Shown here piece by piece: positions 7,824 through 57,680 of a stretch of DNA of 64,000 nucleotides. A program made the translations under genes and the position numbers. Under the pieces are notes generated by a model. That model worked only from the letters and a program-made list of their open reading frames with translations. It had not been told where the DNA came from and made no database searches. The stretch lies in NCBI GenBank assembly GCA_965216295.1, contig OZ244141.1:161819-225818 (forward strand), written 5' to 3'. This stretch comes from Minisyncoccota bacterium. Lineage in GTDB: Bacteria; Patescibacteriota; Minisyncoccia; Phycocordibacterales; JABAAK01. The number at the start of each line of letters is the position of its first letter. Position 1 is the first letter of the stretch.

Positions 7824-7990
7824 TGTTTGGTAAAACCTCCATATATAGATAAATGAAAAACAAAGGTGTGTCTGAGGAAAACCCTCACACACATACACCA
7901 TATATCATACAACAAAATATACAAATAGGCAATGTAGTTTTACACACTATGTATTAGAAATATGATAAGTCACGGATATACTACACTTGT

Positions 7991-13677: not shown

Positions 13678-15834
13678 TTACCCCGTTCGTCGTTTGATAA
13701 CTTCTTCAGCGACAGATTTTGGTACCTCCATATAACAAGCAAACTCCATTGTTGATGTTCCACGACCACCGGTGATAGAGCGAAGGTGTGTTGTGTATCC
13801 GAAGATCTCTGCAAGAGGCACTTTTGCATCAATCACTTTCAAAGAACCACGATCTTCTACACCTTCAACTTGCCCTCGTCGTGAGAGAAGGTCACCATTG
13901 ACATCACCCAAGAACTCATCAGGAATGACTACCTCAATTTTCATAATAGGTTCAAGAAGCGTTGGTTGTGCTTTCTTTGCCGCATCCTGGAATGCTTGTG
14001 ACGCTGCAATTTTAAATGCAATTTCTGAAGAGTCAACATCGTGATACGAACCATCGTAGAGGTTGATGGCAACGTTCACTATTTGATATCCAGCAACAAC
14101 ACCACGAGAGAGTGCTTCACGAACTCCTTTCTCAACAGCTGGAATATACTCTTGAGGAATGACACCTCCTTTAATACTATTGGTAAACTTAAAGCCATGA
14201 TTGTATTTCACATTTTTTGGAAGCGCTTTGATTTCTGCTTCAGAGAGTGGTTGTTGCGGAGAGACGGTGAGCTTCACGTGCCCATACTGTCCACGACCTC
14301 CTGTTTGTTTAATATATTTTACTTCTGATCCAGCTTCTCTCTTAATTGTTTCGCGATAGGCAACCTGTGGTTTCCCAACGTTTGCTTCAACATGAAACTC
14401 TCGTTTCATACGTTCAATTAATACTTCAAGGTGTAGTTCACCCATACCAGCAATGATGGTATCAGCGGTTTCCTGATCAGTTCGTATTCGGAAGGTAGGG
14501 TCTTCGTTTGAGAGTCGTCCCAGAGCAATACCCATCTTTTCCTGGTCAGCCTTGGTTTTTGGTTCAATACGCAACTGTATCACTGGTTCAGGGAACACAA
14601 TCTTTTCTAGAATAATTGGCGCATCTTCCGCACAGAGCGTGTCAGATGTTTTTACCCCCTTCAGACCAACCCCTGCCACAATCTCTCCAGCGTAGGCAAT
14701 CTTCACCTCTTCTCGATCATTAGCATGGAGACGGACGAGACGACCAAGTCGTTCTTTGTCACCAGTACTTGCGTTGTATATATAAGAACCGGCACTCACG
14801 GTTCCTGAATAGATACGGAAGAATGCTAATTGCCCAACAAAAGGGTCGTTCTGAAGTTTAAAGACCAAGGCCGAAAACGGCTCTTCATCAGACGCTTTTC
14901 GCTCAACAGGAGTATCAGTATCTTTTGGATGAACACCACGAACAGGTGGTATGTCTGTCGGTGCTGGAAGGTAATCAATCACAGCATCAAGAACGGGTTG
15001 CACACCAACATTTTTCAAAGCAGAACCGACAAGGACAGGGAAAAACTTATTCGCCAACGTTCCTTTACGGATTGCCACTTTCAATGTTTCTCCTGAAACC
15101 TCTGTGCCCTCAAGATACTTCTCAGCGATACTGTCATCAAGGTCAGAGACTGCCTCTAGCAGGTGCCCACGAGCCTCTTGTGCTTCTTTTTTCAATGATT
15201 CTGGTATTGCCTCCTCTCGCATCTGTTCTCCCTTCTCACCATCAAAATACACCGCACGCATGGCGACAAGATCAATAACACCTTCTAAAGAATCTTCAAT
15301 GCCAATTGGTAGTTGTATGCAACACGCTTTCTTGGAAAGCCGTTCAATGATACTAGCAAACGACGTTGTAAAGTTTGCACCAGTACGATCGAGTTTGTTG
15401 ATAAAGCAGACACGGGGCACATGGTATTTATCTGCTTGTCGCCAGACAGTCTCAGACTGTGGTTCAACACCAGCAACACCATCAAAGACCACGACACCAC
15501 CATCAAGGACTTTTAAGGAGCGTTCTACCTCAGCGGTGAAGTCAACGTGTCCTGGTGTATCAATAATATTGAGGCGGTGAATGTTATCTGTGTCACTTTT
15601 GTGGTAGCTAGGTGTCCAAAAACACGTTGTGGCAGCAGAAGTAATCGTGATACCACGCTCTCGTTCTTGATCCATCCAGTCCATTGTTGCCTCTCCTTCA
15701 TGAACCTCGCCAATTTTGTGAGACACTCCTGTGTAATAGAGTACTCGTTCAGAGGTCGTTGTTTTTCCTGCATCAATGTGCGCAATAATACCAATGTTAC
15801 GCACTCTCTCTAACGGATAGTCACGGGTTACCAT
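13678..15834 (-). CDS. fusA: Elongation factor G; encoded on the strand opposite to rpsL-rpsG and tuf
   Basis: G-domain '[20 protein letters not shown]', 'DTPGHVDF', 'NKLDR'. 718 aa, full five-domain length. Confidence 0.95.
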
Positions 15835-16043
15835 ACAAACAACACACTACCATATTGACAGTGACAGTGGTACATCTTCACACAATGCATCATCAGAGCA
15901 CAATGTGTTACTTGACGGATACACACAACACAAGGTACGATTAACAATGTCGTTTGAACGACATCCTTGCGTGTGGCTCTTTTCTTGTTAAAGAGAAAAT
16001 CCTTGAACGCAAAACATTTTATTACCACTCTATAGAGAAATAT

Positions 16044-17234
16044 ATGGCAGAGATTTTTGATCGCAGCAAACCGCACATTAACGTTGGAACAATTGGTCAC
16101 GTTGATCACGGTAAAACAACGCTTACCGCAGCAATACTCAGTGTATTGAGTAAAACAGATGGCTACAGTGCCAACACGAAAGAAGTGGATGCAATTGATA
16201 ACGCTCCAGAAGAGAAAGCACGCGGTATCACGATTGCACTTTCACACCAAGAATACGAAACACCAAAGCGTCACTACGCACACGTTGATGCTCCTGGTCA
16301 CGCCGATTACATTAAAAACATGATCACCGGAGCGGCACAGATGGATGGTGCTATTATTGTGGTTGCAGCGTCTGACGGTGCTATGCCCCAGACTCGTGAA
16401 CACATCCTTCTTGCACGACAAGTAGGTGTTCCAAACCTCATTGTCTTTATCAATAAGTGTGACATGGTTGATGATAAGGAGATTATTGATTTAGTTGAAG
16501 CAGAGATGCGTGAGCTATTGAGTAAGTATGAATTTGATGGTGAGAAAGCTCCTATCATCAAAGGATCTGCCTTGAAAGCACTCGAAGATCCAAGTGGTGA
16601 GTACGGTAAGAGTATCGTTGAATTGGTTGACGCTATGGACACATACTTCCCTGAACCAAAACGTGAAGTTGAAAAGCCATTCCTCATGCCTATCGAAGAC
16701 ATCTTCTCTATTGAAGGTCGTGGAACAGTTGTCACCGGAAAGATTGAACGAGGTACTGTTAAGGTTGGTGAAGAGATTGAGATTATTGGTATCAAAGATA
16801 CTACCAAAACAACAGTGACTGGTATTGAAATGTTTAACAAGCAATTAGAAGAAGGTATGGCGGGTGATAACGCTGGTGTTCTTCTCCGTGGTGTTAAGAA
16901 AGAAGATATCCATCGTGGGCAGGTTCTTGCAAAACCAGGAACATCGAAACCACATACTGAATTTGAAACAGAGATATATGCACTCTCAAAGGAGGAAGGT
17001 GGCCGTCACAAACCCTTCTTTACTGGGTATAAGCCACAGTTCTACATTCGTACAACTGATGTGACTGGTGAGTTAAAACTCCCAGAAGGTGTTGAAATGG
17101 TGATGCCAGGTGATACCATCAAGGCAAGCATCAAACTCATCAATCCTGTTGCTCTCGAGGAACAGCAACGTTTCGCTATCCGTGAAGGAGGTAAAACCGT
17201 TGGCGCAGGAGTGGTTACCAAAATAATCGCGTAG
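16044..17234 (+). CDS. tuf: Elongation factor Tu
   Basis: '[27 protein letters not shown]', 'DAPGHADY', 'NKCD'. 396 aa from the internal ATG. Confidence 0.95.
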
Positions 17235-35209: not shown

Positions 35210-36880
35210 GTGATGTTGCGCGATACGATACAACAGTACGTCTATGAGGCACTCAAAAAAACTGGGTACACAATTGCTGTGCCAGAAGAGGTAACGCTCA
35301 CCCACCCCCCAGAGCGGTTTGGTGACTTTGCTAGTAATGCAGCATTTATCATTGCCAAGAAACAAGGAGGTCATCCAAAAGAGATTGCGACAACACTTGC
35401 CACTACTATACGAGAAGCAGAACACAAGGAGATACAGAGTGTCTCGGAGACACCAGAAGGATTTATCAATATATATATAACAGAAGAGACACTTCTTGCA
35501 GAAGCACAGAAACTTTTGACGGTAGGATCTGGAGTCATCATTGATCTTTTAGAGGGGAGTCGGGTGAGTGTTGAATATACCGACGCGAATCCATTCAAGC
35601 AACTTCACGCAGGGCACCTCATGACCAATGCAATTGGTGAGTCCCTTGCTCGTATCATTGAAGCAGTCGGTGGTGTCGTTGTCCGAGTGTGCTATCAGGG
35701 AGATGTTGGACTTCATGTTGCAAAGTGTCTTTGGGCACTTGCACAACGGGATGATGATGAGGTGACTGCCCCTATTTTAGGAGAAGCGTATGCGCGTGGT
35801 GATGCAGCATACCGAGAAGGTGGCACTCAGAAAGAAGAAATAGAAAACTACAATCAGTTGATATACGCTCAATCAGATCCGCTGGTCAATTCATTGTATG
35901 AATTAGGGAAACGAGTATCGCTGGATCACTTTGAGGAGATGTACCGTCGTGTTGGTACAAAGTTTGATGAATATATTTTTGAAAGTGAAGCAGCACCCGT
36001 CGGACTTCAAGAGGTGCAAACAGGGTTAACGAAAGGGGTGTTTGTAAAAGATGATGGAGCAGTTATCTTTCAGGGTGAAAAACACAACTTACACACCCGT
36101 GTCTTTATTACTACAAAAGGATTACCAACCTATGAGGCAAAAGAGATAGGGCTTGCGTTGGTAAAAGAGGAACGCATTCGTGCAGAGAGAGATATTGTCG
36201 TTACCGCCAATGAAATTTCAGAATATTTGCGTGTTATTGTTGCGGTGTTGGAAAAACTTCACCCAACACTTGCAAAAAAGATAGAACATGTTTCACACGG
36301 CACGCTCTCGCTTACAGGAGGAAAAATGTCCTCCCGAACAGGAGACGTTTTATCCGCTGATGTACTCCTTGATACCATTGGTACCTCTGTTATGCAACAA
36401 GCAAAGAAGGGGGGCACGACCATCACGCCATCAATTGCTGATGCAATTGCTGTTGCCTCATTGAAGTACGCTATTTTACGCCAGGCACAGAGCAACAATA
36501 TTGTCTTTGACACAGCACAGGCAACATCGTTTGAGGGTGATTCAGGAGCATACCTCCTCTATGCGCGGGTACGAGCAAAAGCTCTGTTGGATCGTGGTGG
36601 GACACCAGATAAAGGGGTGATGCCCTATAGTCACCTGCCACTGTTACGACTCCTCTATCAGTTTGAAGAAGTGGTTGCGCGATCATACACACTCCGTGAG
36701 AGTCATCACCTCGCACAGTATCTCAGTCGGTTAACCAGCGTGTATAGCCATTGGTATGCAACTGAAAAAATACTTGATCAGGAAGATTCAGATGAACGGT
36801 TACAGTTAGTATTGGTATGTATCCAAGTCCTTGAGCGGGGATTAGATCTTCTCGGTATCCGCCCAGTAGATAAAATGTAG
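35210..36880 (+). CDS. argS: Arginine--tRNA ligase
   Basis: Class-I HIGH 'ANPFKQLHAGHLMTNAIGESLARI', KMSKS-equivalent 'KMSSRTGDV' and a C-terminal DALR anticodon-binding region. Confidence 0.85.
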   Translation: MMLRDTIQQYVYEALKKTGYTIAVPEEVTLTHPPERFGDFASNAAFIIAKKQGGHPKEIATTLATTIREAEHKEIQSVSETPEGFINIYITEETLLAEAQKLLTVGSGVIIDLLEGSRVSVEYTDANPFKQLHAGHLMTNAIGESLARIIEAVGGVVVRVCYQGDVGLHVAKCLWALAQRDDDEVTAPILGEAYARGDAAYREGGTQKEEIENYNQLIYAQSDPLVNSLYELGKRVSLDHFEEMYRRVGTKFDEYIFESEAAPVGLQEVQTGLTKGVFVKDDGAVIFQGEKHNLHTRVFITTKGLPTYEAKEIGLALVKEERIRAERDIVVTANEISEYLRVIVAVLEKLHPTLAKKIEHVSHGTLSLTGGKMSSRTGDVLSADVLLDTIGTSVMQQAKKGGTTITPSIADAIAVASLKYAILRQAQSNNIVFDTAQATSFEGDSGAYLLYARVRAKALLDRGGTPDKGVMPYSHLPLLRLLYQFEEVVARSYTLRESHHLAQYLSRLTSVYSHWYATEKILDQEDSDERLQLVLVCIQVLERGLDLLGIRPVDKM

Positions 36881-36904
36881 TGGACATAGTAAACTAAAGG
36901 ATAT

Positions 36905-39900
36905 ATGGGGAACACCGAAAGGGACACACCACAAGAAGAGAAACAGACAAACCCAACCACACGACGAGAACTCGCAACGCTTGCCTTCTGGAAGAAAGAA
37001 AAACTGTTTGAAAAAAGCCAACGAGGGTTATCGCCAAAGGGTTGGTTTGCTACGGTACGAGAACGACTGTTTGGTAAACGTCGTTTTGTTTTTTATGACG
37101 GACCACCGTTTGCAACAGGACTTCCACACTATGGCCATCTTCTTGCCAGTGTTATCAAAGATGCCGTGCCACGGTATTGGACGATGCGTGGGTATCGTGT
37201 TGATCGACGATGGGGATGGGATTGTCACGGATTACCACTTGAAGTTGAAATTGAAAAGCGACTTGGGTTGCGCAACAAGAGAGAAATACAAGAGTACGGC
37301 ATTGATGCATTTAATGCACACGCTCGAGAAGCGATAGGGACGTATGAATCTGAGTGGAAGAAGGTGATTGCTCGGATAGGGCGTTGGGTGGATATGGAAA
37401 ATGACTACAAGACAGTGACGACTGATTACATTGAATCGGTATGGCACATCTTTCATACTCTACACACACGTGGCTGTGTCTACCAGGGGCGTAAGGTGTT
37501 GCACTTTTGTCCACGGTGCAGTACAACCCTTTCTAATAACGAGGTGGCTGACTGTTATCAGGACACAGACGACACGGCTGTCTATGTTACATTTCCACTA
37601 ACAGACGATCCTACAACACACTTTGTTGCATGGACCACGACTCCGTGGACACTCTTTGGCAACGCTGCACTGGTAGTTCATAAGGATCTTTCGTATGCCT
37701 ATGTGAAAAAAGGAGAAAACCGCTTTATCGTCCACGAGAAACAAGCACACGTAATTGCCAATGGTACTGTTGAGAAAGTTGTCTCAGGGGATACTTTGGT
37801 TGGTCTTTCATACACACCACTCTACAAAGGTGTTTACACTGGAGAAGAATCAGGCACTTGGAAAGTCTATCACGCACCATTTGTTGATGCTGAAACAGGG
37901 ACTGGTATTGTCCACATTGCTCCCGCATACGGTGAAGATGATCTTCAAGTAGCGCGGAAACACCATCTTCCTGTGACGCATCACATTGATGAAAACGGAC
38001 AGTTTATGGATTCAGTGCAGGAGCTTGTTGGGCAGTCTCCAAAAAGTAAAGGAAGGGATGAAGAGGTGACACAAAAGATTATTACCGTTTTAAATCGTCA
38101 TGGACGGATATTGAAAGAAGAGGTTATGCAACACAGCTATCCGTTCTGTTGGCGATGTGACACACCATTGCTTCACTACGCGACCACCTCCTGGTTTATC
38201 GATGTTCCCAAGTATCGAAACGCCATGGTCGCTGCAAACAAGAATATTCGTTGGGTACCAAGTCACATACGAGACGGTCGTTTTGGTAACTGGGTTGCCA
38301 ATGCAAAAGAGTGGGCTGTCTCTCGTCCACGTTTTTGGGGTGCCCCAATTCCTGCATGGAAAAGTGCATCTGGCAAACACCTCATTATCGATTCTTTAGA
38401 AACCATGATGAACCACATGCGTTCAAAGAATACCTATATTTTTGTCAGACATGGGGAGTGTCAAGGAAACGAGGAAGGGTATTACAACTGTCTTCCAAAC
38501 GAAAAAAACATACTCACCAAACGAGGAAGAAGGCAGGCCTTTGTCGCTGGGCAGAAACTAAAAGCACACAATCCAACGATGATTATCGCTTCTCCTGCAA
38601 CGAGAACACGGCAGACAGCAGCGATTATACAAGAGACATTAGAAGTACCGGTACGAGAAGACCCTGCTGTGTGTGAAATACAAGCACCGTTTTTTGATGG
38701 CAAGTCGATAACAAAATTTGTTACCACAATGCGAGAGCGGGTGAAACAAGATGGTATCGAAGGAGCACCTTCGGGTGGTGAGTCATATGTAGCAGTGTAT
38801 TGTCGTGTTGAAAAGTTTTTACGCACCCTTGAACAAACACACACAGGAGAGACCATTGTTATCGTGACACACAAGTCATGTGTGACAGCAGCAAAGATGA
38901 TAGCTGCTGGTCGCTATCCGAATACATCATTCTATCTTTCTAGTGAGTCTCGTAAACCTCTGTGGCGTATTCCAAACTGTGAGGTTGCTCAGATTCCATA
39001 CCGTCTCGTCCATCGCGATGCAGACGGCGCCGTTGATCTTCACCGTCCCTTTATTGATACGGTAGTACTCTATGACAGTGATGGTGAATCGTATCACCAT
39101 GTCGGTTCGGTGTTTGATTGTTGGTTTGAGTCAGGTTCAATGCCATATGCATCAAACCACTATCCATTTGCCTTGCGAGAGACAAAGAGTGTGTTTAATC
39201 CAAAGACAAAAACAGGATTCCCTGCAGACTTTATCGCTGAAGGGTTAGATCAGACACGCGGATGGTTTTATAATCTTCTTGCTATTGGTGTTGGTGCCTT
39301 TGATGTTGCTCCGTATAAAAATGTTGTTGTCTTTGGTCTTATTCGCGCTGCCGATGGAAAAAAGATGAGTAAACGGCTCAAAAACTATACCGACCCAAAC
39401 CTACTTATCGATCGCTATGGAGCAGATGCGCTCCGCCACTACTTCCTTGCTTCACCAGTTGTTCGTGGTGAAGATATTGATTTCAAAGACGACAGTGTTG
39501 CTGAAATTCATCGTAAGGTATATCTTCGGCTTGATAACTGTCTTCATTTCTATACCACCTACAGCACCCTTCCACACCAAAGAAGAACTGAAGGTACATC
39601 ACAGAGTACCCATCTTTTGGATAGATTTATCCTTTCACGAGTTGCTGACATGCATCGACAGGTGAGTCGTGGTTTTTCAAACTATGAACTTGATGGAGCA
39701 ACTAGTGCCATCGCTCCATTCATTGAAGATCTCTCTGCGTGGTATCTTCGTCGTTCCCGTGATCGTCTTCGTTCAGAGACAGCTGATGGTGTAGCTGCTC
39801 GTGAAACACTTTGGAGAACACTCTTTATCACTGCAAAAACGATTGCACCAATTGCACCGCTGTATGCTGAACACCTTTACCAGGCACTTGGTGTCAAAGG

Positions 39901-40435
39901 CGGTCCAGACAGTGTCCATCTCTGTCACTGGGAAGAGGAGATGCCCATTGATCGGGGTGTTATTGAAAAGACGGAAACTATTCGTTCGATTGTTTCAAAA
40001 GCACACGAACAACGTTCATCAGCGGGCATTAAAGTACGGCAACCGCTTGCTCTTTTGGAGGTTCCTACAACACTGCGCCTCGATTCTGATACCAAAACAC
40101 TTCTACAAGATGAGGTGAATGTGAAGGAAGTGCGACACGGAAAACAGACTGCACTTGATATCACGATAACGCAAGCACTGCAGAGTGAGGGATTTGCACG
40201 GGAGTTTATTCGTAAAGTACAAGATCTTCGAAAAGAGTTAGCGTACAAACCGCTTGATCACATTGCGACACTCACCATCGCAGGACCGTCTGTGGTGATA
40301 GAGCAGCTGCGACAACACGAGACACTCATTGCAACCATAACAAGAGCAAAAGGCATATCGTATGCACCAACTGCCAAACACACCTTCTCTCTTAATGATC
40401 TTCTCGTCAGTGTTTCGCTTGAGCAAGGGAGGTAG
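36905..40435 (+). CDS. ileS: Isoleucine--tRNA ligase with an inserted histidine-phosphatase (PGAM-like) domain (~residues 495-680) in place of the zinc-knuckle segment
   Basis: HIGH 'PHYGHLLASV' and KMSKS 'KMSKRLKNY', with a CP1 editing region. 'RFWGAPIPAW' and 'DLHRPFID...DCWFESGS' are separated by a ~200-aa block carrying 'IFVRHGECQGN' (RHG catalytic motif) and 'VIVTHKSCV', the second His of the histidine phosphatase superfamily. Total 1176 aa. Confidence 0.85.
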   Translation: MGNTERDTPQEEKQTNPTTRRELATLAFWKKEKLFEKSQRGLSPKGWFATVRERLFGKRRFVFYDGPPFATGLPHYGHLLASVIKDAVPRYWTMRGYRVDRRWGWDCHGLPLEVEIEKRLGLRNKREIQEYGIDAFNAHAREAIGTYESEWKKVIARIGRWVDMENDYKTVTTDYIESVWHIFHTLHTRGCVYQGRKVLHFCPRCSTTLSNNEVADCYQDTDDTAVYVTFPLTDDPTTHFVAWTTTPWTLFGNAALVVHKDLSYAYVKKGENRFIVHEKQAHVIANGTVEKVVSGDTLVGLSYTPLYKGVYTGEESGTWKVYHAPFVDAETGTGIVHIAPAYGEDDLQVARKHHLPVTHHIDENGQFMDSVQELVGQSPKSKGRDEEVTQKIITVLNRHGRILKEEVMQHSYPFCWRCDTPLLHYATTSWFIDVPKYRNAMVAANKNIRWVPSHIRDGRFGNWVANAKEWAVSRPRFWGAPIPAWKSASGKHLIIDSLETMMNHMRSKNTYIFVRHGECQGNEEGYYNCLPNEKNILTKRGRRQAFVAGQKLKAHNPTMIIASPATRTRQTAAIIQETLEVPVREDPAVCEIQAPFFDGKSITKFVTTMRERVKQDGIEGAPSGGESYVAVYCRVEKFLRTLEQTHTGETIVIVTHKSCVTAAKMIAAGRYPNTSFYLSSESRKPLWRIPNCEVAQIPYRLVHRDADGAVDLHRPFIDTVVLYDSDGESYHHVGSVFDCWFESGSMPYASNHYPFALRETKSVFNPKTKTGFPADFIAEGLDQTRGWFYNLLAIGVGAFDVAPYKNVVVFGLIRAADGKKMSKRLKNYTDPNLLIDRYGADALRHYFLASPVVRGEDIDFKDDSVAEIHRKVYLRLDNCLHFYTTYSTLPHQRRTEGTSQSTHLLDRFILSRVADMHRQVSRGFSNYELDGATSAIAPFIEDLSAWYLRRSRDRLRSETADGVAARETLWRTLFITAKTIAPIAPLYAEHLYQALGVKGGPDSVHLCHWEEEMPIDRGVIEKTETIRSIVSKAHEQRSSAGIKVRQPLALLEVPTTLRLDSDTKTLLQDEVNVKEVRHGKQTALDITITQALQSEGFAREFIRKVQDLRKELAYKPLDHIATLTIAGPSVVIEQLRQHETLIATITRAKGISYAPTAKHTFSLNDLLVSVSLEQGR

Positions 40436-40444
40436 TGTCTACAT

Positions 40445-41044
40445 ATGGGAAACGGCTACAGTATCGTGACAACGAAAGCGTTCGTTTTGAAAACCAAACC
40501 AATCGGTGAGGCAGATCGACTTGTTGTTCTTTTCTCTCAAAAGCTCGGTAAAATTACTATCTATGCCAAGAGTGTTCGGCTTGGCAAGAGCAAACTCAAA
40601 CCATTTGCCTATCCATACCGTTACGGTATCTTTGACATCATCGTTGGTAAAAAGTACATTCTCAAAGATGCTCGGTGCCTTGATTGTTTTGATGAGATAT
40701 GGCGCAATCAGAATCGTTACGGTATCTTTGTTTCTCTCCTCCGTAATGTTGATATGTTCATTGAAGGAGTAGAGGTAAACACAAACATTTTTGATAGTAT
40801 TGAAAAAACTACCACCTATCTGCAACAGCAACCTGTCTCCCAACTTGCCGCACAGCACACACCGATTGTTACTGTGTTTCAATTTTTGGTACTTCAAGAA
40901 CTCGGTTGTGTTGATTGGGGAAATAGCATAGGGATGTCTTTTTTGCAATTGGTAACTGAGGTAGCGACACGAACAGCAACTGGCAGGTACCTTGAAGAAC
41001 AGGTGAATGCTTATCTACTAACACAACACGTTGGAGGACGGTAG
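40445..41044 (+). CDS. recO: DNA repair protein RecO
   Basis: N-terminal OB-fold 'AFVLKTKPIGEADRLVVLFSQKLGKITIYAKSVRLGKSKL'. Confidence 0.75.
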   Translation: MGNGYSIVTTKAFVLKTKPIGEADRLVVLFSQKLGKITIYAKSVRLGKSKLKPFAYPYRYGIFDIIVGKKYILKDARCLDCFDEIWRNQNRYGIFVSLLRNVDMFIEGVEVNTNIFDSIEKTTTYLQQQPVSQLAAQHTPIVTVFQFLVLQELGCVDWGNSIGMSFLQLVTEVATRTATGRYLEEQVNAYLLTQHVGGR

Positions 41045-43750: not shown

Positions 43751-45625
43751 ATGCGATTGCGAGATGTAGATAGAAACTTGAACTACGACAAGTCAAAAAA
43801 AGTTGCTCAACAGAAGAGGCGATTAAGTCCGCGCAAGACAGCAATTTCTACTTCATGGCATAGGACACAAGAAAAAACACCAGGTTCAAAATTGTTGGGA
43901 CTCATACTTCTTTTAGCAGTCACTTTTTTTTCCATAGCCGTTGTTGTTGCCATTTTTATACAAATTGCTGGTTTGGATAAATCTATTTCACCATCAAAGA
44001 TAAATATCATCGTTCAGGGACCAATCACTGCAGTCAGTGATGAGGACATACCATTGATAATACGAGTGGTCAATCGTAACTCGGTTACTCTGGAGGTGCC
44101 AAAATTAATTGTTGATTATCCAGACGGCACATATACCAGTACTAGCAAATCAAACCCTTTGCGAACACAAGAAATTCCACTTGATGATATTGAGAGTAAT
44201 GGGTTTGTTGAACATCTATTCAATCAGCGATTTTTTGGAGAAGAGGGTGAAGAAAAAAACCTCAAGTTGACACTAGAGTATCGTGTTCCAGGATCATATT
44301 CTGTCTATCGTTCAGAAACAACAGTACACACCATCGCATTGCGAGGTGACACTGTTTCAATTACCAAACCATCCCTTACTCGTGCCGTCTCTGGCAAAGA
44401 GTTGAAGATTTCCTTTAGTGTGACATCTCGAGTGAGTTTCACACTCCCTTCTGTCGTTGTTCGTGTACGGTACCCCGCTGGTTTCGTACCATTGCAAGAG
44501 TCAACAGATGCGGTGAAGACGGCGTGGACCTTTACTGACTTCCCCGGAGGTGCGACTAAAAATATACAAGTTACAGGAATTATTCGTGGTGAGCCAGGTG
44601 TGCGACAAACGTTTGTCGCTGAAGTATTTGCATCCCCAGCTATCAAGGATGTGAATGCCGTTCGTGTTGCCAAGCAAAGTGAAGAGATTCTCATTGAAAA
44701 ATCATTTCTTCGTGCAACAGTTCTTCTAGATGATTCTGAAAATGATACAATTGTCGTTTCACCCAAAGATACTGTTTCGGGCACAATACGGTGGCAAAAC
44801 GAAGAGACAACAGCGCTAAAAAACGTCACCTTGGTGGCAACAATAACAGGAACGGGATTGGATGAAAGTAGCGTTACAGTGATAAATGGCCATTATGATA
44901 TTAATAACAGTCAGATAGTGTGGGATCAAACGAAGTACAAAGAGTTTTTAAGCATCAATCCTAACCAATTTGGCGAACTATCATTTTCTTTCAAAATACT
45001 TCCCTCACGGATAGAGTTTGCGTCGGAGAATAAATACGTTACTGTATCAATCTCTGCGATGGCTAACAGGGTAGGTTATGATTTTGTTGATAGCATTAGT
45101 GATATAGAGGAGAAGACGGTGAGGGTACGAAGTGCCGTTCAGATAAGTAGTACGACTCTCCATGAAACAAGTCGTGTAGCAAATGCAGGTTCTCTACCAC
45201 CACGGGTTGGTCAAGAGACAACATATGTTCTGCATTATTTCATCAAGAACGACGGTAATATACTCAGCGATGCAGTGCTCACCATACCGCTTTCCAATCA
45301 CGTTACTTTCACTGGTGTGGTAGATGGTGTGAGTACAAAAAACTTTCAATACAACACAGACAAACACACCATTACTATTACGATTCCTCAGATAGATGCC
45401 TTCGGCACGAATGCGAGTAGTTCTGTTGAAGTACAAGTGAGTCTCATACCAAAGAGTACTGATGTTGGTCATGAAGTTCCTTTGGTAGGGAAGGCAACAT
45501 TCATTGCACAAGATGAGTTTGTTAACAGAAAGTATCAAGGCACATTCTCAGAACTTACCACCCGTCTGACAACCGAATCAAATAATAGAGAAACCCGTTT
45601 GGTTCAAGAAGCAGAAGGGGGATAA
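43751..45625 (+). CDS. Membrane-anchored (single N-terminal TM) large extracytoplasmic protein, function unknown
   Basis: Basic cytoplasmic N-tail, TM 'LLGLILLLAVTFFSIAVVVAIFI', then ~550 aa of beta-rich sequence with no recognisable catalytic motif. Confidence 0.5.
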   Translation: MRLRDVDRNLNYDKSKKVAQQKRRLSPRKTAISTSWHRTQEKTPGSKLLGLILLLAVTFFSIAVVVAIFIQIAGLDKSISPSKINIIVQGPITAVSDEDIPLIIRVVNRNSVTLEVPKLIVDYPDGTYTSTSKSNPLRTQEIPLDDIESNGFVEHLFNQRFFGEEGEEKNLKLTLEYRVPGSYSVYRSETTVHTIALRGDTVSITKPSLTRAVSGKELKISFSVTSRVSFTLPSVVVRVRYPAGFVPLQESTDAVKTAWTFTDFPGGATKNIQVTGIIRGEPGVRQTFVAEVFASPAIKDVNAVRVAKQSEEILIEKSFLRATVLLDDSENDTIVVSPKDTVSGTIRWQNEETTALKNVTLVATITGTGLDESSVTVINGHYDINNSQIVWDQTKYKEFLSINPNQFGELSFSFKILPSRIEFASENKYVTVSISAMANRVGYDFVDSISDIEEKTVRVRSAVQISSTTLHETSRVANAGSLPPRVGQETTYVLHYFIKNDGNILSDAVLTIPLSNHVTFTGVVDGVSTKNFQYNTDKHTITITIPQIDAFGTNASSSVEVQVSLIPKSTDVGHEVPLVGKATFIAQDEFVNRKYQGTFSELTTRLTTESNNRETRLVQEAEGG

Positions 45626-46707: not shown

Positions 46708-46761
46708 CAGAGAGTGCGTGAATGGTCGTGTAGTATACTGTTTCGTAACAAAAAAATCGGC

Positions 46762-48195
46762 ATGACGCATTTCTATATCACCACGACACTGCCGTATGCC
46801 AATGCGGCACCACACTTAGGGCACGCGCTTGAGTTTGTGCAGGGTGATGTTCGTTCTCGCTTTGAACGTCTACGAGGGAAAGAGGTGTATTTCAATGTTG
46901 GGCTTGATGAGCACGGAACAAAGGTATATCAGTGTGCAAAGAAGGAAGGAGTTGCTCCAAAAGAATTTGTTGATACCATAGCGAAATCCTTTCAAGAACT
47001 AGTCACTAATTTAAAAATTCAACCAACTCGTTTTATACGAACCACCGATGCAGATCACTACCGTGCGGTTGAGGAGTTATGGAATCGTTGCAAAGAACGG
47101 GGGGATATATATACAAAAGAACACAAAGGGGACTACTGTGTTGGGTGTGAGTTATTTCTCTCTGACACAGACTTAGTGGCTGACAAAGATGGTACCCGAC
47201 AGTGCCCACTCCACCCCGGTAAAAAGCTAGAATATATCGCTGAGGAAAACTATTTTTTCAAACTTTCAAAGTATCAAGAACAACTACTCTCAGCATATCG
47301 AGAAACAGAGAACTTTGTCATTCCAAAGCATCGTCTCAATGAGCTCTGTTCATTTGTAGAATCTGGCTTGGAAGATGTCAGTATCTCTCGTTGCAAAAAA
47401 CGCCTTCCGTGGGGCGTTCCCGTCCCTGGTGACGCAAGTCAGACGGTGTATGTGTGGTTTGATGCACTGACAAACTACCTCACCACCATCGGTTGGCCAG
47501 ATGATCCTCATTGGGAGAAGTGGTGGCCAGTGGTACAGATTGCTGGAAAAGATAACCTTCGCCAGCAATGTGTTATTTGGCAGGCAATGCTTTTATCATT
47601 GGGCATTCATCCGTCAAAGACAGTCTACATTCATGGATTTTTAACATCACAGGGAAGAAAAATGAGTAAGACGGTGGGGAATGTGATACATCCAAACGAT
47701 TTATTAAAACGGTACGGGGCTGAATTTACCCGCCTCTACCTCACCAAACATGTTCACTCCTATGAAGACACGGACATCTCTTTCGAACATATACAGAAAG
47801 CTTATGAAGCAGATGCAGTCAACGAACTTGGCAATCTTGTTTCACGGATTATGAAAATGGCGGAAGAGCATCTCGATGGACAGACGGACGAGATGTATAC
47901 CAATACATTTGACGCGGAGTATTGTCAAGCATTAGAGCGGTTTGATTATCGAGAGGCAATAGGGTACGTTTGGCGAGAAGTGCAGAAGGTGAACAAACGC
48001 ATTACGACACGAGAACCATTCAAGTTAATCAAGAAAGATCCTCAAGCGGGAAAGGAAGAAATACGGCAGTTACTGAAAATTCTTTCACATATTGGCTACC
48101 ATCTCAAGCCATTTATGCCAGAGACCGCAGTGTGTATTGAGAAAGCAATTCGGGACAACAGAAAACCAGATTCACTGTTTCCTTCATTGCGGTAG
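46762..48195 (+). CDS. metG: Methionine--tRNA ligase (short form without a C-terminal dimerisation domain)
   Basis: HIGH 'PYANAAPHLGHALE' and KMSKS 'KMSKTVGNVI'. The C-x-x-C knuckle is 'CVGCELF...'. Confidence 0.9.
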   Translation: MTHFYITTTLPYANAAPHLGHALEFVQGDVRSRFERLRGKEVYFNVGLDEHGTKVYQCAKKEGVAPKEFVDTIAKSFQELVTNLKIQPTRFIRTTDADHYRAVEELWNRCKERGDIYTKEHKGDYCVGCELFLSDTDLVADKDGTRQCPLHPGKKLEYIAEENYFFKLSKYQEQLLSAYRETENFVIPKHRLNELCSFVESGLEDVSISRCKKRLPWGVPVPGDASQTVYVWFDALTNYLTTIGWPDDPHWEKWWPVVQIAGKDNLRQQCVIWQAMLLSLGIHPSKTVYIHGFLTSQGRKMSKTVGNVIHPNDLLKRYGAEFTRLYLTKHVHSYEDTDISFEHIQKAYEADAVNELGNLVSRIMKMAEEHLDGQTDEMYTNTFDAEYCQALERFDYREAIGYVWREVQKVNKRITTREPFKLIKKDPQAGKEEIRQLLKILSHIGYHLKPFMPETAVCIEKAIRDNRKPDSLFPSLR

Positions 48196-54110: not shown

Positions 54111-57100
54111 ATGAATATTGTTGCAAATAAAACAATAGCAGTGTTTGTTTCAGCAGCATTTGTGTTTACTGCGTATTTTGTGTACACGCCATTGGCGAAC
54201 GCACAAAGTTCACAGGATGAAACTATTGCAAAACTTCTCGCACAAATCGAGGCATTGACCAAACAGGTCAGCGCCTTGAGTAGTAACAGTGGTGGTAGCA
54301 GTATAACAACAACCACAAATAATGCTTGTTCATATGCATGGACAAAAAACTTAGCTATAGGAAGTTCTGGTGAAGACGTTCTCCGGTTACAACGCTTCCT
54401 CAATGGCGACTCTGCGACTACTGTGGCAACCTCGGGAGCTGGATCAGTGGGTAGTGAAACCCGCTACTACGGTCCTGCAACCGCAAATGCGGTTTCCCGT
54501 TTCCAGGAAAAGTATGCTAGTGCTATTCTCTCGCCACTTGGCTTGACGAAAGGTACTGGTAATTTCTCTGTATCTACGCGCGGAGAGGCAAATCGTCTCT
54601 GTGGCAGTGGTGGAGGTACTAATACTGGAGGTTCCACAATTCCTGTTGTTGGTGGTGATTTGAATGTATCGGATGCTCGACAACCGGCTAATGGTTACGC
54701 TGTTGCAGGTGCACAGCGTGTTCCATTCACTTCATTTACTCTTACCGCGGGGAGTAATGATGTACGAGTAAGTGGTATTGAAGTTCGTCAGGTTGGTCTT
54801 TCCAAACGAGACGACTTTGATTCAGTTGCTCTTGTTGATGGTAATGGAGTACAACTTGGTAGCTCACGGTCGCTGAACTCAGATAAAGAGGCAACCGTTG
54901 GAGGTAGATTTACCGTTCCACGCGGTCAATCAGTTACTTTGACAGTTGTTGGTGATATTGGTGATGAAGCATCATCTGGTATCGCTCAGCTACAAGTAAC
55001 CAGTGTGGAGGCAAACGGACAGGTTTCTGGTCGTTTCCCTATTAAAGGTGCGTTACACGCTTTCTCAGATGCTGTAACACTTAGTAAAGTAGACGTAATT
55101 TCTGGTGGTTCTGGTAATGATAACTTGGAATTGAATTCATTGGAAGACCTTGCTAAGTTTGAATTGCAAATTGGTTCAACAGGTAATGAGGATGCATACC
55201 TCAAATCAATTACTTTTGAACAAGCAGGTTCTATTGACGCAGATGATTTTGATAACGATTTAGAACTCGTTGTTGATAACAGAGATTCATATCGTCTACG
55301 TTCAGGAAACGATGATCGTTACACGGTTGTCTTTTCTGGTAGAGGGTACAAAATTGAAGAGGGCGATAGGGTTGATTTGACCATTGAAGGTTCAGTGGTT
55401 GATGGTACATCTCGTACTGTTGAATTCACTCTTGATGACCCATCAGATGTCTATGTTGTTGGTGCTGATTTCGGATATGGTTTACCAGTAAGGTTTGGTG
55501 GTGATGATGATGGTGATAGTATCGTAAGTTATAAGTGGAATGTGACTGGTGGTAATGGTGACATTAATAGGGGTACTGCTTTGAACTCAAGTGACTTTAA
55601 TGTCACCTATGGAGATAATCGTCTCATTGGTGCATTTGATGTTGAAATTGAGGGTGAAGCGGTCGAATTTGAAGATCCAGAATTCAGCGTTACTATCTCT
55701 GGTGCCGCAGGCAAAATTTCTCAAAAGATATTGGATGCTCTTGATGGTGATGGTGATGATGAGTTGAGTATTGACAGACCATATCTTGAGATAGATGGTC
55801 GAAAGTACGCAGACGCAGAAGACTTTGTTTTCAAGACTAGCGACATCAGTGGTACTGCTGCTACTGGAGTTGTTGCGACGAAAACATTAAAGTTCTCTAA
55901 CAACTTTGATCTCTCTGAAAAAAGAGATGAAGAGGAGTACACTTGGATTGTGAAAGGTGATCTTGATACCGATTGGCCTGATGGCACAAAGGTAACATTG
56001 AAGCTTGTCAGATTTAAGAGTGCAGAGGGAGTAGTTTCAGGTGATAGTTACACAGCAGATGGTAAGGCATTTGCACAAAATGGTGATTTCATCATTGAAT
56101 CAGATGACGTTACTATCGAAGGTAACCTTGTAAAATTCTCACTTACTGGTCGTACTGTTGATGAAACACAGTATGTTGCTGATGTTGAGGGTGTCCCATT
56201 CGCTACCGTTGAGATTGACGCAGGTGATTCAAGTGAAGATGTTTCGGTGAGTCAGTTAGAGGTAACATTGGAAGCAACAGGCACAAACCTTGAGGAATTG
56301 AGAAGGTGTGATTTGTTGAATGATAAGGATGATAAGAGATCATCAGTATTGAGCAGGCGAGAAACTCCGAAAGGCGATGATCCTGGTACAACAAAACTCT
56401 CCTTTAACTTCGATAGGGGGTATGAAGTACGTGCTGGAGATACTGATCAATTAACCCTTGTGTGTGACATTAAAAGAAATGCTACGAACGCAGGTCGGTA
56501 TCAATTCAAATTCTTAACCACCAACAATGTGCGGTACGAAATTGGTCGAGATAGCTTTAATGTTGCAGTAGTAGAGAGAGATGACCTTGGTGAAACTATA
56601 ACAATTAGTGATCAAGCTACTTTGAATGTTCGTACTATTGCAGAACAGGGGTCAGAAGGAAGTCGAATTGTTGTTGCAACAGGTAACGAAGGCCAAGATG
56701 AAATTTTGGTTGGTGAAATTGAATTTGAAGCAGAACAGTCTGATGTGACTCTTAACAAGATTGTCCTAACAGGTGTGTTGACGAATACTGCATCAGGTAC
56801 TTTAAATAGTGCTGTGATAGAGTCAATACAACTTAAGCATGGTGGTGTAATGAAAGAAATAGCTAACGAAGTTGAGTTAGATAATGCGGGCAGGATTGAA
56901 TTTGAGAGCTTAGACTTTGATTTTGAGAGTGGTCGTAAAGAACGGGTTGAAGTATATGTTTCAGTTAATGGTATTAACGGTGATTCATCATCTAAAACTG
57001 GTATTTCAGGTGCTCAGTTTGATCTTAAGGTAATTGAAACTAGTTACCAAGCTAAAGCGGGTGTTACTACTGAACAAACACAATCGTACCAAGCAACAGA

Positions 57101-57680
57101 TGGTAATCTTAATAACTTGAATGGAATACTTACCTATCGTGCAACACCGACAGTTTCTTCAAGAACAGTCAAACAAACCGGTAGTGGTACGAACACTAAA
57201 CTCTACGAGTTTAGAGTAGGTAATGATTCAGAAGAGGGAGTATACTTCGGTAAAGCTGTGCTTGATGTAACACTTTCTGGAGCAACAATATCAAACGTTA
57301 CTCTCTATGCTGGTGATTCTAATGACAGTGAAAGTCAATTAGCAAGTGTATCTGGTAGTGTTTCTGGTGGGGAAGTGATTTTAACACTAGATGATGTACA
57401 GCGAATTGATAGTGGTGGTTCAACACTCTTCTCTGTATACGGTACCTTGAATGACGGAAGTGGTGATAGTGATAAGGTAACAGTAGGTTTGAGAAGCGGT
57501 GGTACCCCTGCTGCTGCTGCTGCGCTATCAGGAGTTGTTACGACTAATAACGGTTTCGTTTGGTCACCAAACTCTGCTAATAACTTCGGTGGGCCTGCCG
57601 CGACGGTTGTTGATTGGTTCACGGGTGCAAGTATTATTAGAGGAAGTGGAATCAACAACTGGACTACTGATACTGACTAG
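54111..57680 (+). CDS. Very large secreted surface protein (1189 aa) with an N-terminal peptidoglycan-binding-like domain and long beta-sandwich repeat regions
   Basis: Signal peptide, a coiled segment, a PG_binding_1-like block 'GSSGEDVLRLQRFLNG...YGPATANAVSRFQEKY', then ~1000 aa of Gly/Asp/Val/Thr-rich repeats. A terminator hairpin follows at 57730. Confidence 0.6.
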   Translation: MNIVANKTIAVFVSAAFVFTAYFVYTPLANAQSSQDETIAKLLAQIEALTKQVSALSSNSGGSSITTTTNNACSYAWTKNLAIGSSGEDVLRLQRFLNGDSATTVATSGAGSVGSETRYYGPATANAVSRFQEKYASAILSPLGLTKGTGNFSVSTRGEANRLCGSGGGTNTGGSTIPVVGGDLNVSDARQPANGYAVAGAQRVPFTSFTLTAGSNDVRVSGIEVRQVGLSKRDDFDSVALVDGNGVQLGSSRSLNSDKEATVGGRFTVPRGQSVTLTVVGDIGDEASSGIAQLQVTSVEANGQVSGRFPIKGALHAFSDAVTLSKVDVISGGSGNDNLELNSLEDLAKFELQIGSTGNEDAYLKSITFEQAGSIDADDFDNDLELVVDNRDSYRLRSGNDDRYTVVFSGRGYKIEEGDRVDLTIEGSVVDGTSRTVEFTLDDPSDVYVVGADFGYGLPVRFGGDDDGDSIVSYKWNVTGGNGDINRGTALNSSDFNVTYGDNRLIGAFDVEIEGEAVEFEDPEFSVTISGAAGKISQKILDALDGDGDDELSIDRPYLEIDGRKYADAEDFVFKTSDISGTAATGVVATKTLKFSNNFDLSEKRDEEEYTWIVKGDLDTDWPDGTKVTLKLVRFKSAEGVVSGDSYTADGKAFAQNGDFIIESDDVTIEGNLVKFSLTGRTVDETQYVADVEGVPFATVEIDAGDSSEDVSVSQLEVTLEATGTNLEELRRCDLLNDKDDKRSSVLSRRETPKGDDPGTTKLSFNFDRGYEVRAGDTDQLTLVCDIKRNATNAGRYQFKFLTTNNVRYEIGRDSFNVAVVERDDLGETITISDQATLNVRTIAEQGSEGSRIVVATGNEGQDEILVGEIEFEAEQSDVTLNKIVLTGVLTNTASGTLNSAVIESIQLKHGGVMKEIANEVELDNAGRIEFESLDFDFESGRKERVEVYVSVNGINGDSSSKTGISGAQFDLKVIETSYQAKAGVTTEQTQSYQATDGNLNNLNGILTYRATPTVSSRTVKQTGSGTNTKLYEFRVGNDSEEGVYFGKAVLDVTLSGATISNVTLYAGDSNDSESQLASVSGSVSGGEVILTLDDVQRIDSGGSTLFSVYGTLNDGSGDSDKVTVGLRSGGTPAAAAALSGVVTTNNGFVWSPNSANNFGGPAATVVDWFTGASIIRGSGINNWTTDTD

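Follow-up and report, generated by a model that had tools for sequence, protein, structure and literature searches.

A Predicted Histidine Phosphatase Domain Nested within the Catalytic Core of Isoleucyl-tRNA Synthetases from Patescibacteria

Introduction

Few known enzymes are as conserved as the aminoacyl-tRNA synthetases (aaRSs), and it is rare for their cores to have taken up a new catalytic domain. A precedent for an isoleucyl-tRNA synthetase (IleRS) with an additional catalytic domain is the NCBIfam family ileS_w_GNAT (NF040702), which is catalogued as an exception family. Type-2 IleRSs are eukaryote-like and mupirocin-insensitive. Outside the synthetases, a histidine phosphatase domain is also joined to a nucleic-acid enzyme in the actinobacterial RNase H/acid phosphatase proteins (Rv2228c/RnhC type, NF005567), a fusion whose biological reason is, to our knowledge, still unclear in its literature. 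The connective peptides (CPs) of the yeast IleRS have been named CP core, CP1 (editing), CP2 and CP3 (PMC11685878).

Here we describe an IleRS gene from a Minisyncoccota bacterium, located in a stretch of 64,000 nucleotides (assembly GCA_965216295.1, contig OZ244141.1, positions 161,819 to 225,818, forward strand; referred to as the window), in which a domain of predicted histidine phosphatase fold lies inside the catalytic core of the synthetase. All nucleotide positions are those of the window and all residue numbers, unless stated otherwise, those of its IleRS.

Results

The IleRS gene (36905..40435, + strand) is a single unbroken open reading frame (ORF) of 1176 amino acids (aa). A preliminary description of the locus had claimed that a domain of ~200 aa separates the IleRS blocks RFWGAPIPAW and DLHRPFID...DCWFESGS, and this is what we find: the three motifs lie at aa 476-485, 711-718 and 738-745, and the Pfam domain His_Phos_1 (PF00300) splits tRNA-synt_1 in two, with Anticodon_1 and DUF5915 as the further Pfam matches. 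Both hallmarks of the histidine phosphatase superfamily named there are present as VRHGECQGN (aa 514-522) and VIVTHKSCV (aa 652-660), as is the segment WKSASGKH (aa 485-492). The Pfam search that it proposed gave, on the full protein, a match to PF00300 at aa 512-667 (nt 38438-38905; E=4.6e-29, 101.9 bits, gathering cutoff 21.7), while the originally flagged segment (38390-38960) by itself scored E=1.4e-30 and 106.8 bits. The end of that segment, at aa 685, was slightly short: alignment, Pfam and structural modeling with AlphaFold2 (AF2) delimit the sequence inserted relative to solved IleRSs as aa 496-710 (38390..39034, +), with the folded domain at about aa 509-705 (nt 38429-39019) and IleRS sequence returning from about aa 711 (nt 39035). 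The human cytoplasmic IleRS has about 19 residues in place of residues 492-710, and thus about 200 aa are extra. The base composition shows no break across the insert.

When modeled alone, the insert folds independently, with a predicted local distance difference test score (pLDDT) of 95.4 and a predicted template modeling score (pTM) of 0.92, and the Arg/His/Arg/His set, together with a Glu, is intact. In Foldseek comparisons the model matches the phosphatases PspA (4ij5/4ij6), PhoE (1h2e), CobC (6e4b), GpgP and a histidine-family phosphatase of the riboflavin pathway at template modeling (TM) scores of 0.7-0.77, and a profile of the insert ranked the PDB sequences in the same way (4ij5 E=1e-31, PhoE 2e-27, CobC 8e-25). 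As modeled, the insert is an independent domain belonging to branch 1 of the histidine phosphatase superfamily, within its small-phosphatase branch. The earlier label of a phosphoglycerate mutase-like domain therefore holds for the superfamily and fails for the cofactor-dependent phosphoglycerate mutases (dPGMs) proper, whose equivalog models score far below cutoff (TIGR01258 15.4 bits against 81.7, NF010713 15.2 against 305, dPGM_arch 54-59 against 225); the domain measures ~195 aa, as against about 230-250 aa for a dPGM with its mutase-specific regions for substrate binding, and the mutases in the PDB align worse than the small phosphatases. Membership in the CobC and PspA equivalogs was likewise rejected (TIGR03162 75-80 bits against 162.9; NF045917 70-75 against 350).

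To gauge conservation, 177 full-length fusion proteins were aligned with MAFFT, and the counts below refer to this alignment in window numbering. The RHG motif (38447..38455, +) comprises R515 (177/177), H516, the predicted phospho-accepting nucleophile (177/177), and G517 (157/177). The second phosphate-binding Arg, R567 (38603..38605, +), is invariant within the motif S563-P-x-x-R567, as is S563 (each 177/177), and T571 is kept in 167. The predicted general acid/base E591 (38675..38677, +) is Glu in 173 sequences and Asp in the other 4 and pairs with the Glu of PspA IIEIDHG, and the second catalytic His, H656 of VTHKS (38870..38872, +), is found in 176. Further conserved positions of the insert are N522 (166/177), G541 (177/177), E626 (175/177) and R634 (175/177). 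Against this background the median identity to the window protein is 30% for the insert and 50% for the IleRS body, and identity between the inserts of family members reaches only ~30-33%. A catalytic set that is nearly invariant while the insert diverges faster than its host is a signature of selection on catalysis, and it is very probable that the phosphatase is active and the IleRS around it functional. With a median isoelectric point of 6.15 and a net charge of -3, the insert is acidic to neutral. Indels occur in its cap region (aa ~596-625) and in its C-terminal loop (~666-695), both of which are variable; a non-basic insert with a variable cap favors a small-molecule substrate, bound mainly through its phosphate, over an RNA end. 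The idea of a phosphatase acting on tRNA ends is weakened by the same lack of basic character.

For mapping of the insertion site, the insert was removed in silico and the rejoined sequence aligned to the Thermus thermophilus IleRS (1ile). The insert falls at T. thermophilus residues ~478-483, between the zinc knuckle halves C461/C464 (CxxC) and C502/C504 (CxC), and the motif DVW518YDSG of 1ile follows about 35 residues past the insertion point (1ile numbering). The host loop is a surface loop in the second half of the Rossmann fold and, from the order of elements, is probably CP3. Among loci without the phosphatase (L025-L082) the loop region measures about 228 nt in Rickettsiales and Chlamydiae, 234-240 in Saccharimonadia, 270 in Microbacterium, 282 in Chitinophagales and 312-315 in Bacteroidales.

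According to the preliminary description, the zinc knuckle had been replaced by the insert and had lost its Cys ligands. The loss is evident in the window; the replacement is not, since both hairpins are still predicted around the insert (strands within aa 484-494 and 721-732). The first (aa 484-494, AWKSASGKHLI; 38354..38386, +) has strands at 484-487 and 492-494 in the model and pairs with T. thermophilus IWVCQACGKEE, and the second (aa 718-736, DTVVLYDSDGESYHHVGSV; 39056..39112, +) has strands at 721-723 and 729-732 and pairs with T. thermophilus DQVELACACGGTMRRVPYV. At the four knuckle Cys positions the window reads KSASGK and YDSDGE, so that it lacks a Cys4 zinc knuckle of the T. thermophilus type. 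Cys is found at position 489 in just 37 of the 177 relatives and at positions 724 and 726 in 41 and 40; none of the knuckle Cys is present in 128, whereas about 37 hold the full 2+2 set, and a partial Magasanikbacteria protein (P0001) also combines the insert with knuckle Cys. Conversely, the solved IleRSs of yeast, human and Candida lack the knuckle Cys and have no insert. The existence of relatives in both states, together with insert-free eukaryotic enzymes that lack the Cys, indicates that Cys loss and insertion were separate events.

The nested architecture is a clade-wide trait of many lineages of the candidate phyla radiation (CPR), as shown by a survey of related IleRSs such as the preliminary description had called for. 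PF00300 and IleRS domains co-occur in 120/120 of the best full-length homologs (42-51% identity, 1140-1210 aa), and an exhaustive search of 1.84 billion representatives with a profile of the insert plus flanks yielded 172 clusters (50% identity) at E <= 1e-30, nearly all of them aligning over the full length of the profile, which falls at about aa 450-740 in proteins of ~1150-1200 aa. A word-indexed search with insert and flanks returned P0001 as the lone fusion, which reflects its limit of sensitivity; the family was recovered by the full-length and exhaustive searches. Where clusters are named, all names belong to Patescibacteria/CPR, and the matched sources include Kaiserbacteria, Pacebacteria/Paceibacteria, Taylorbacteria, Parcubacteria, Patescibacteria and Magasanikbacteria, the nearest named relatives of the window IleRS being from Kaiserbacteria (47-50% identity). 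When each species was represented by one genome, at least 22 fusion loci were present among the 80 loci listed, in Paceibacteria, Minisyncoccia, Spechtbacterales, Yanofskybacteria, Peregrinibacteria and Peribacteria, while Saccharimonadia, Uhrbacteria and non-CPR bacteria among these loci have a short, insert-free loop. The insert is thus widespread in the CPR and not universal there. Identities of insert and body to the window protein co-vary (Pearson r=0.65), which fits long vertical co-inheritance, and on such sequence grounds the insert is regarded as an ancient acquisition in the CPR/Patescibacteria that has co-diverged with its host enzyme.

The exact window protein is present in a public collection, in a 90% cluster made up of three proteins from contigs of 512, 35.9 and 15.3 kb. 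Two strain variants (L001, L002) carry the same intact IleRS gene between the arginyl-tRNA synthetase (ArgRS) gene and recO and differ from the window allele by ~20 substitutions in total and one in-frame codon within the insert. This codon is an additional Glu at about aa 579, inside the phosphatase domain of L002 (6001-9534). The window protein differs from each variant at 6 residues, three of them in the insert (C633R, A668V, S680G), where all lie at a distance from the catalytic residues. Proteins of this family are already public with automatic Pfam labels, usually under the names 'class I tRNA ligase family protein' or 'isoleucyl-tRNA synthetase', and in NCBI sources many bear just the former. 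In full-text literature that lacks most subscription journals, no description of a synthetase with a histidine phosphatase domain was found (PMC5370408 and PMC6744442 contain nothing relevant), and the nesting in IleRS is apparently undescribed.

A more complicated picture emerged when a hidden Markov model of the insert was run over all fetched proteins in a survey of copies and sites. The knuckle loop (site A) accounts for 184 IleRS domains; a second site follows DxWFESG (site B; P0376, also P0352 and P0338), a third follows KMSKS (site C; P0264, P0352, P0338), and two IleRSs (P0305, P0303) have two successive copies. Such off-site or multi-copy IleRSs are 1380-1490 aa long, with two copies in the Peribacteria and Peregrinibacteria loci (L018, L020, L023), whose proteins measure ~1470-1490 aa. 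Every complete copy in these multi-copy or odd-site IleRSs retains the RHG/Arg/Glu/His core, two copies having one or two E626/R634 substitutions each. The copies within one protein share 23-37% identity, values of 44-51% arising solely in comparisons with a truncated fourth copy in the protein P0249; this low identity indicates that the copies are old, and a recent duplication as their source was rejected on the same figures.

P0249 is itself a valyl-tRNA synthetase (ValRS) with four His_Phos copies, and of its 119 best ValRS relatives (the family P0391-P0508, found from P0249) 70 have one to three His_Phos domains. Seventy of the ValRS domains lie at the loop equivalent to site A, between WxISRQ and DxWFxS, and 7 upstream of that loop; the few ValRS fusions with source names come from Gracilibacteria or Peregrinibacteria, apart from one labeled only 'bacterium'. 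The ValRS inserts of the CPR represent the same kind of module in the equivalent loop of a paralogous class Ia enzyme, but form a separate clade with more catalytic decay. Identity between IleRS and ValRS inserts is 25%, not above the 27% between IleRS inserts and free-standing proteins, and nearest neighbors fall within the own class in all but one case. The separate clades suggest that the module most likely entered the two synthetases independently, and the comparison of clades and identities does not support an exchange of inserts between the IleRS and the ValRS of one lineage. Summed scores in multi-copy proteins exceed the CobC TIGR03162 cutoff of 162.9 (271 bits for P0249, 199 for P0264), and those of P0249 also exceed the thresholds of the SixA and pgm_1 models; such sums could yield false calls of cobalamin or glycolysis functions in metabolic reconstructions.

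The host part of the window protein is predicted to be a normal, functional type-2 IleRS in which the HIGH and KMSKS signatures, the CP1 editing site and the anticodon-binding and C-terminal domains are intact. It passes the IleRS equivalog TIGR00392 of NCBIfam (796.8 bits, cutoff 621.4), and the full-length AF2 model (pLDDT 93.3, pTM 0.89; alignment of 115 sequences) matches P. megaterium IleRS2 (8c8u) best among PDB entries in Foldseek (E=2e-78, TM 0.83), with type-1 IleRSs scoring lower than type-2 enzymes. Membership among the mupirocin-resistance IleRSs MupA/MupB was rejected (MupB 617.6 and MupA 598.2 bits against a cutoff of 1900). In the family alignment, the HIGH signature of the class I catalytic site reads HYGH (aa 75-78; 37127..37138, +; H75 156/177, G77 156/177, H78 152/177) and the KMSK signature lies at aa 820-823 (39362..39373, +; K820 176/177, M821 156/177, S822 173/177, K823 176/177). 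The DCWFESG motif (aa 738-744; 39116..39136, +) aligns with 1ile residues 516-522, with D738, W740, E742, S743 and G744 invariant or nearly so in relatives, and its Trp pairs with T. thermophilus W518, a residue with a role in the isoleucine pocket. The Thr-rich motif of the CP1 editing domain, AWTTTPWTLFGN (aa 242-253; 37628..37663, +), was identified by alignment and from solved editing domains, the CP1 region matching those of IleRS in 1wk8/1wny; within WTTTPWT (aa 243-249), W243, T244-T246, W248 and T249 are invariant in 115 sequences, as is D346. The other Zn site (C202, C205, C415, C418) is conserved.

Upstream of the IleRS gene lies the ArgRS gene (35210..36880, +), which lacks an insert, and downstream a RecO-like gene (40445..41044, +) that starts 10 nt past the IleRS stop; both are ORFs whose syntenic counterparts in the strain variants match Arg_tRNA_synt_N/tRNA-synt_1d/DALR_1 (in L001 and L002) and RecO_N (PF11967), respectively. 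The gaps are 24 nt between ArgRS and IleRS (36880-36905) and 9 nt between IleRS and RecO (40435-40445), and the gene order is unchanged in the strain variants; the tight spacing and constant order suggest co-transcription of the three genes. The window is rich in translation genes, encoding elongation factors EF-G (13678-15834) and EF-Tu (15954-17234) and a methionyl-tRNA synthetase (46714-48195) in addition to ArgRS and IleRS, and L11, NusG and SecE are encoded upstream in syntenic loci. Scans of the 64 kb returned no tRNA gene and no Rfam family at the gathering threshold. Four large ORFs have no Pfam match at E <= 1e-5: 5406-7901 (-, 831 aa), 7991-10771 (+, 926 aa), 43751-45625 (+, 624 aa) and 54111-57680 (+, 1189 aa).

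Discussion

We favor the explanation that these proteins are two enzymes in one chain, an IleRS and a phosphomonoesterase, with a coupling of the latter to charging being the preferred form, and assign it a rough probability of 0.55. By analogy with the family, Arg515, Arg567 and His656 would hold the terminal phosphate of the substrate, His516 would attack this phosphate to form a phospho-histidine intermediate, and Glu591 would give a proton to the leaving group. Members of the histidine phosphatase family are able to cleave the terminal phosphate off a phosphoanhydride (compare the name of one NCBIfam model, 8-oxo-(d)GTP phosphatase MutT1), and in the proposed mechanism the domain would strip the terminal phosphate from a small nucleotide-derived by-product, AMP or pyrophosphate (PPi), of the adjacent adenylation site. 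All insertion sites flank the substrate-binding motifs DxWFxSG, GLDQTRGWF and KMSKS, which build the pocket for amino acid, ATP and PPi; this position, together with the repeated in-frame insertion into class Ia cores, favors a coupling to adenylation. The coupling of the phosphatase to aminoacylation, taken as a claim of its own, is tentatively proposed from these patterns and may well prove wrong. More tentative still is the form in which the nested phosphatase would be mechanistically coupled to tRNA charging as an accessory class Ia activity in the CPR, acting on PPi, on AMP or another nucleotide, or on a phosphorylated tRNA end, and would have evolved at least twice (IleRS, ValRS).

Several observations weigh against a coupling and lend themselves to a different scenario, in which an ordinary metabolic or house-cleaning phosphatase (e.g., for phosphoserine, sugar phosphates or nucleotides), with no mechanistic tie to aminoacylation, has lodged in a permissive loop of an essential, constitutive gene, from which it is not cleanly excisable and where it is retained because the cell needs a phosphatase. 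The module occupies three or four different loops in one to four copies, indicating that no precise geometry is needed, and a passenger would fit this equally well. The insert-free loop region differs in length between bacterial lineages (228-315 nt), so that the loop is a general hot spot for insertions, and given this variation the insert-bearing loop may simply be permissive. AMP and PPi are released by all aaRSs, yet the module is seen in IleRS and ValRS only, although no survey of other synthetases was made. Apart from the motifs generic to the superfamily, the alignment of 177 sequences shows no residues whose conservation is specific to this family, and the cap is variable; in the ValRS inserts E591 is present in 57/83 and H656 in 73/83, some copies having lost either. 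The nearest characterized relatives (PspA, PhoE, CobC, GpgP and the phosphatase of the riboflavin pathway) are metabolic enzymes, and the absence of a stand-alone His_Phos gene from the 64-kb window points, as weak evidence, in the same direction. Nevertheless, two paralogous class Ia synthetases have, repeatedly and apparently independently, received the module in frame at the same loop, which is hard to explain without host-specific selection, and fusions at the protein termini, which would be far easier, were not seen among the best matches. We consider a passenger, the main rival, rather less likely and prefer the bifunctional enzyme with a link to charging.

The catalytic set would be equally conserved, and the multi-copy variants could raise local activity, if the insert were a protein phosphatase or regulatory module that acts on IleRS or a partner (on phospho-His, Ser, Thr or Tyr, in the manner of SixA, PGAM5 or Sts-1) and counters kinase toxins directed at the synthetase or senses a phospho-signal. 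The superfamily does include protein phosphatases, and SixA is among the weak NCBIfam matches to the insert (E=3.8e-6). However, the best matches are small-molecule phosphatases rather than SixA, PGAM5 or Sts, no kinase partner or phospho-site is known, and the argument is one of family analogy; such a role is improbable.

Even less can be said for a non-catalytic structural module, which would do no more than keep the Rossmann fold stable once the zinc ligands were gone, or offer a surface for phosphate binding or docking, as the preliminary description had suggested in proposing a structural replacement for the Zn module. The absence of knuckle Cys from most relatives would suit it, and the full-length pTM of 0.89 suggests a domain packed in a defined orientation, but a scaffold would have no need of the catalytic residues (the nucleophile and the second His, the two Arg and the acid/base Glu), all of which are invariant in an insert of ~30% identity. 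As described above, the insert also coexists with an intact Cys4 set in about 37 relatives, and eukaryotic IleRSs that lack the Cys need no insert, which makes this role very unlikely. Finally, an assembly chimera, a frameshift fusion with a phosphatase gene next door or an element of the intein type that is spliced out of the final protein can be dismissed, because the IleRS sequence is in one frame on either side of the insert, the ORF is intact in both strain variants and in homologs, the architecture recurs on three contigs of one population and in hundreds of independent assemblies (NCBI, ENA, JGI, Logan), and there is no Hint/intein Pfam match, the fold being the alpha/beta fold of His_Phos and the junction residues not conserved Cys, Ser or Thr.

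An apparently active phosphatase has thus been kept in the IleRS across a large part of the CPR, and in a separate clade in ValRS, in organisms with minimal genomes where each retained domain likely matters. If the domain is coupled to charging, class Ia synthetases would have a new accessory activity, and translation in episymbiotic bacteria would be tied in a testable way to phosphate or nucleotide metabolism. As a passenger, the domain would show, strikingly, that an essential gene can become the permanent carrier of another enzyme. IleRS is also in common use as a phylogenetic marker, and alignments can be disturbed by an insert of 200 aa.

The known systems that come closest each share one part of this arrangement. 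PspA (4ij5), PhoE (1h2e/1ebb), the alpha-ribazole phosphatase CobC (6e4b, 6nru) and GpgP (4qih) have the fold, the ~200-aa size and the RHG/R/E/H set in common with the insert at 18-28% identity, but are free-standing, whereas the insert is nested in the catalytic core of another enzyme. The RNase H/acid phosphatases provide the closest non-synthetase sequences (~30% identity); these are, however, end-to-end fusions with a different partner enzyme and not internal insertions, and the window protein scores 68-72 bits against the NF005567 cutoff of 326. The ileS_w_GNAT family has a different extra domain, and the window IleRS is not a member (293.1 bits, cutoff 1999); among the NCBIfam matches of the window protein there is no comparable curated model for the His_Phos form. 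With P. megaterium IleRS2 (8c8u), T. thermophilus IleRS (1ile) and yeast IleRS (8wnd) the window enzyme shares fold and domain order (TM 0.78-0.85, target-normalized), motifs, and the editing and C-terminal domains, but where these solved IleRSs have a loop of ~20-40 residues it carries a predicted catalytic domain of 200 aa.

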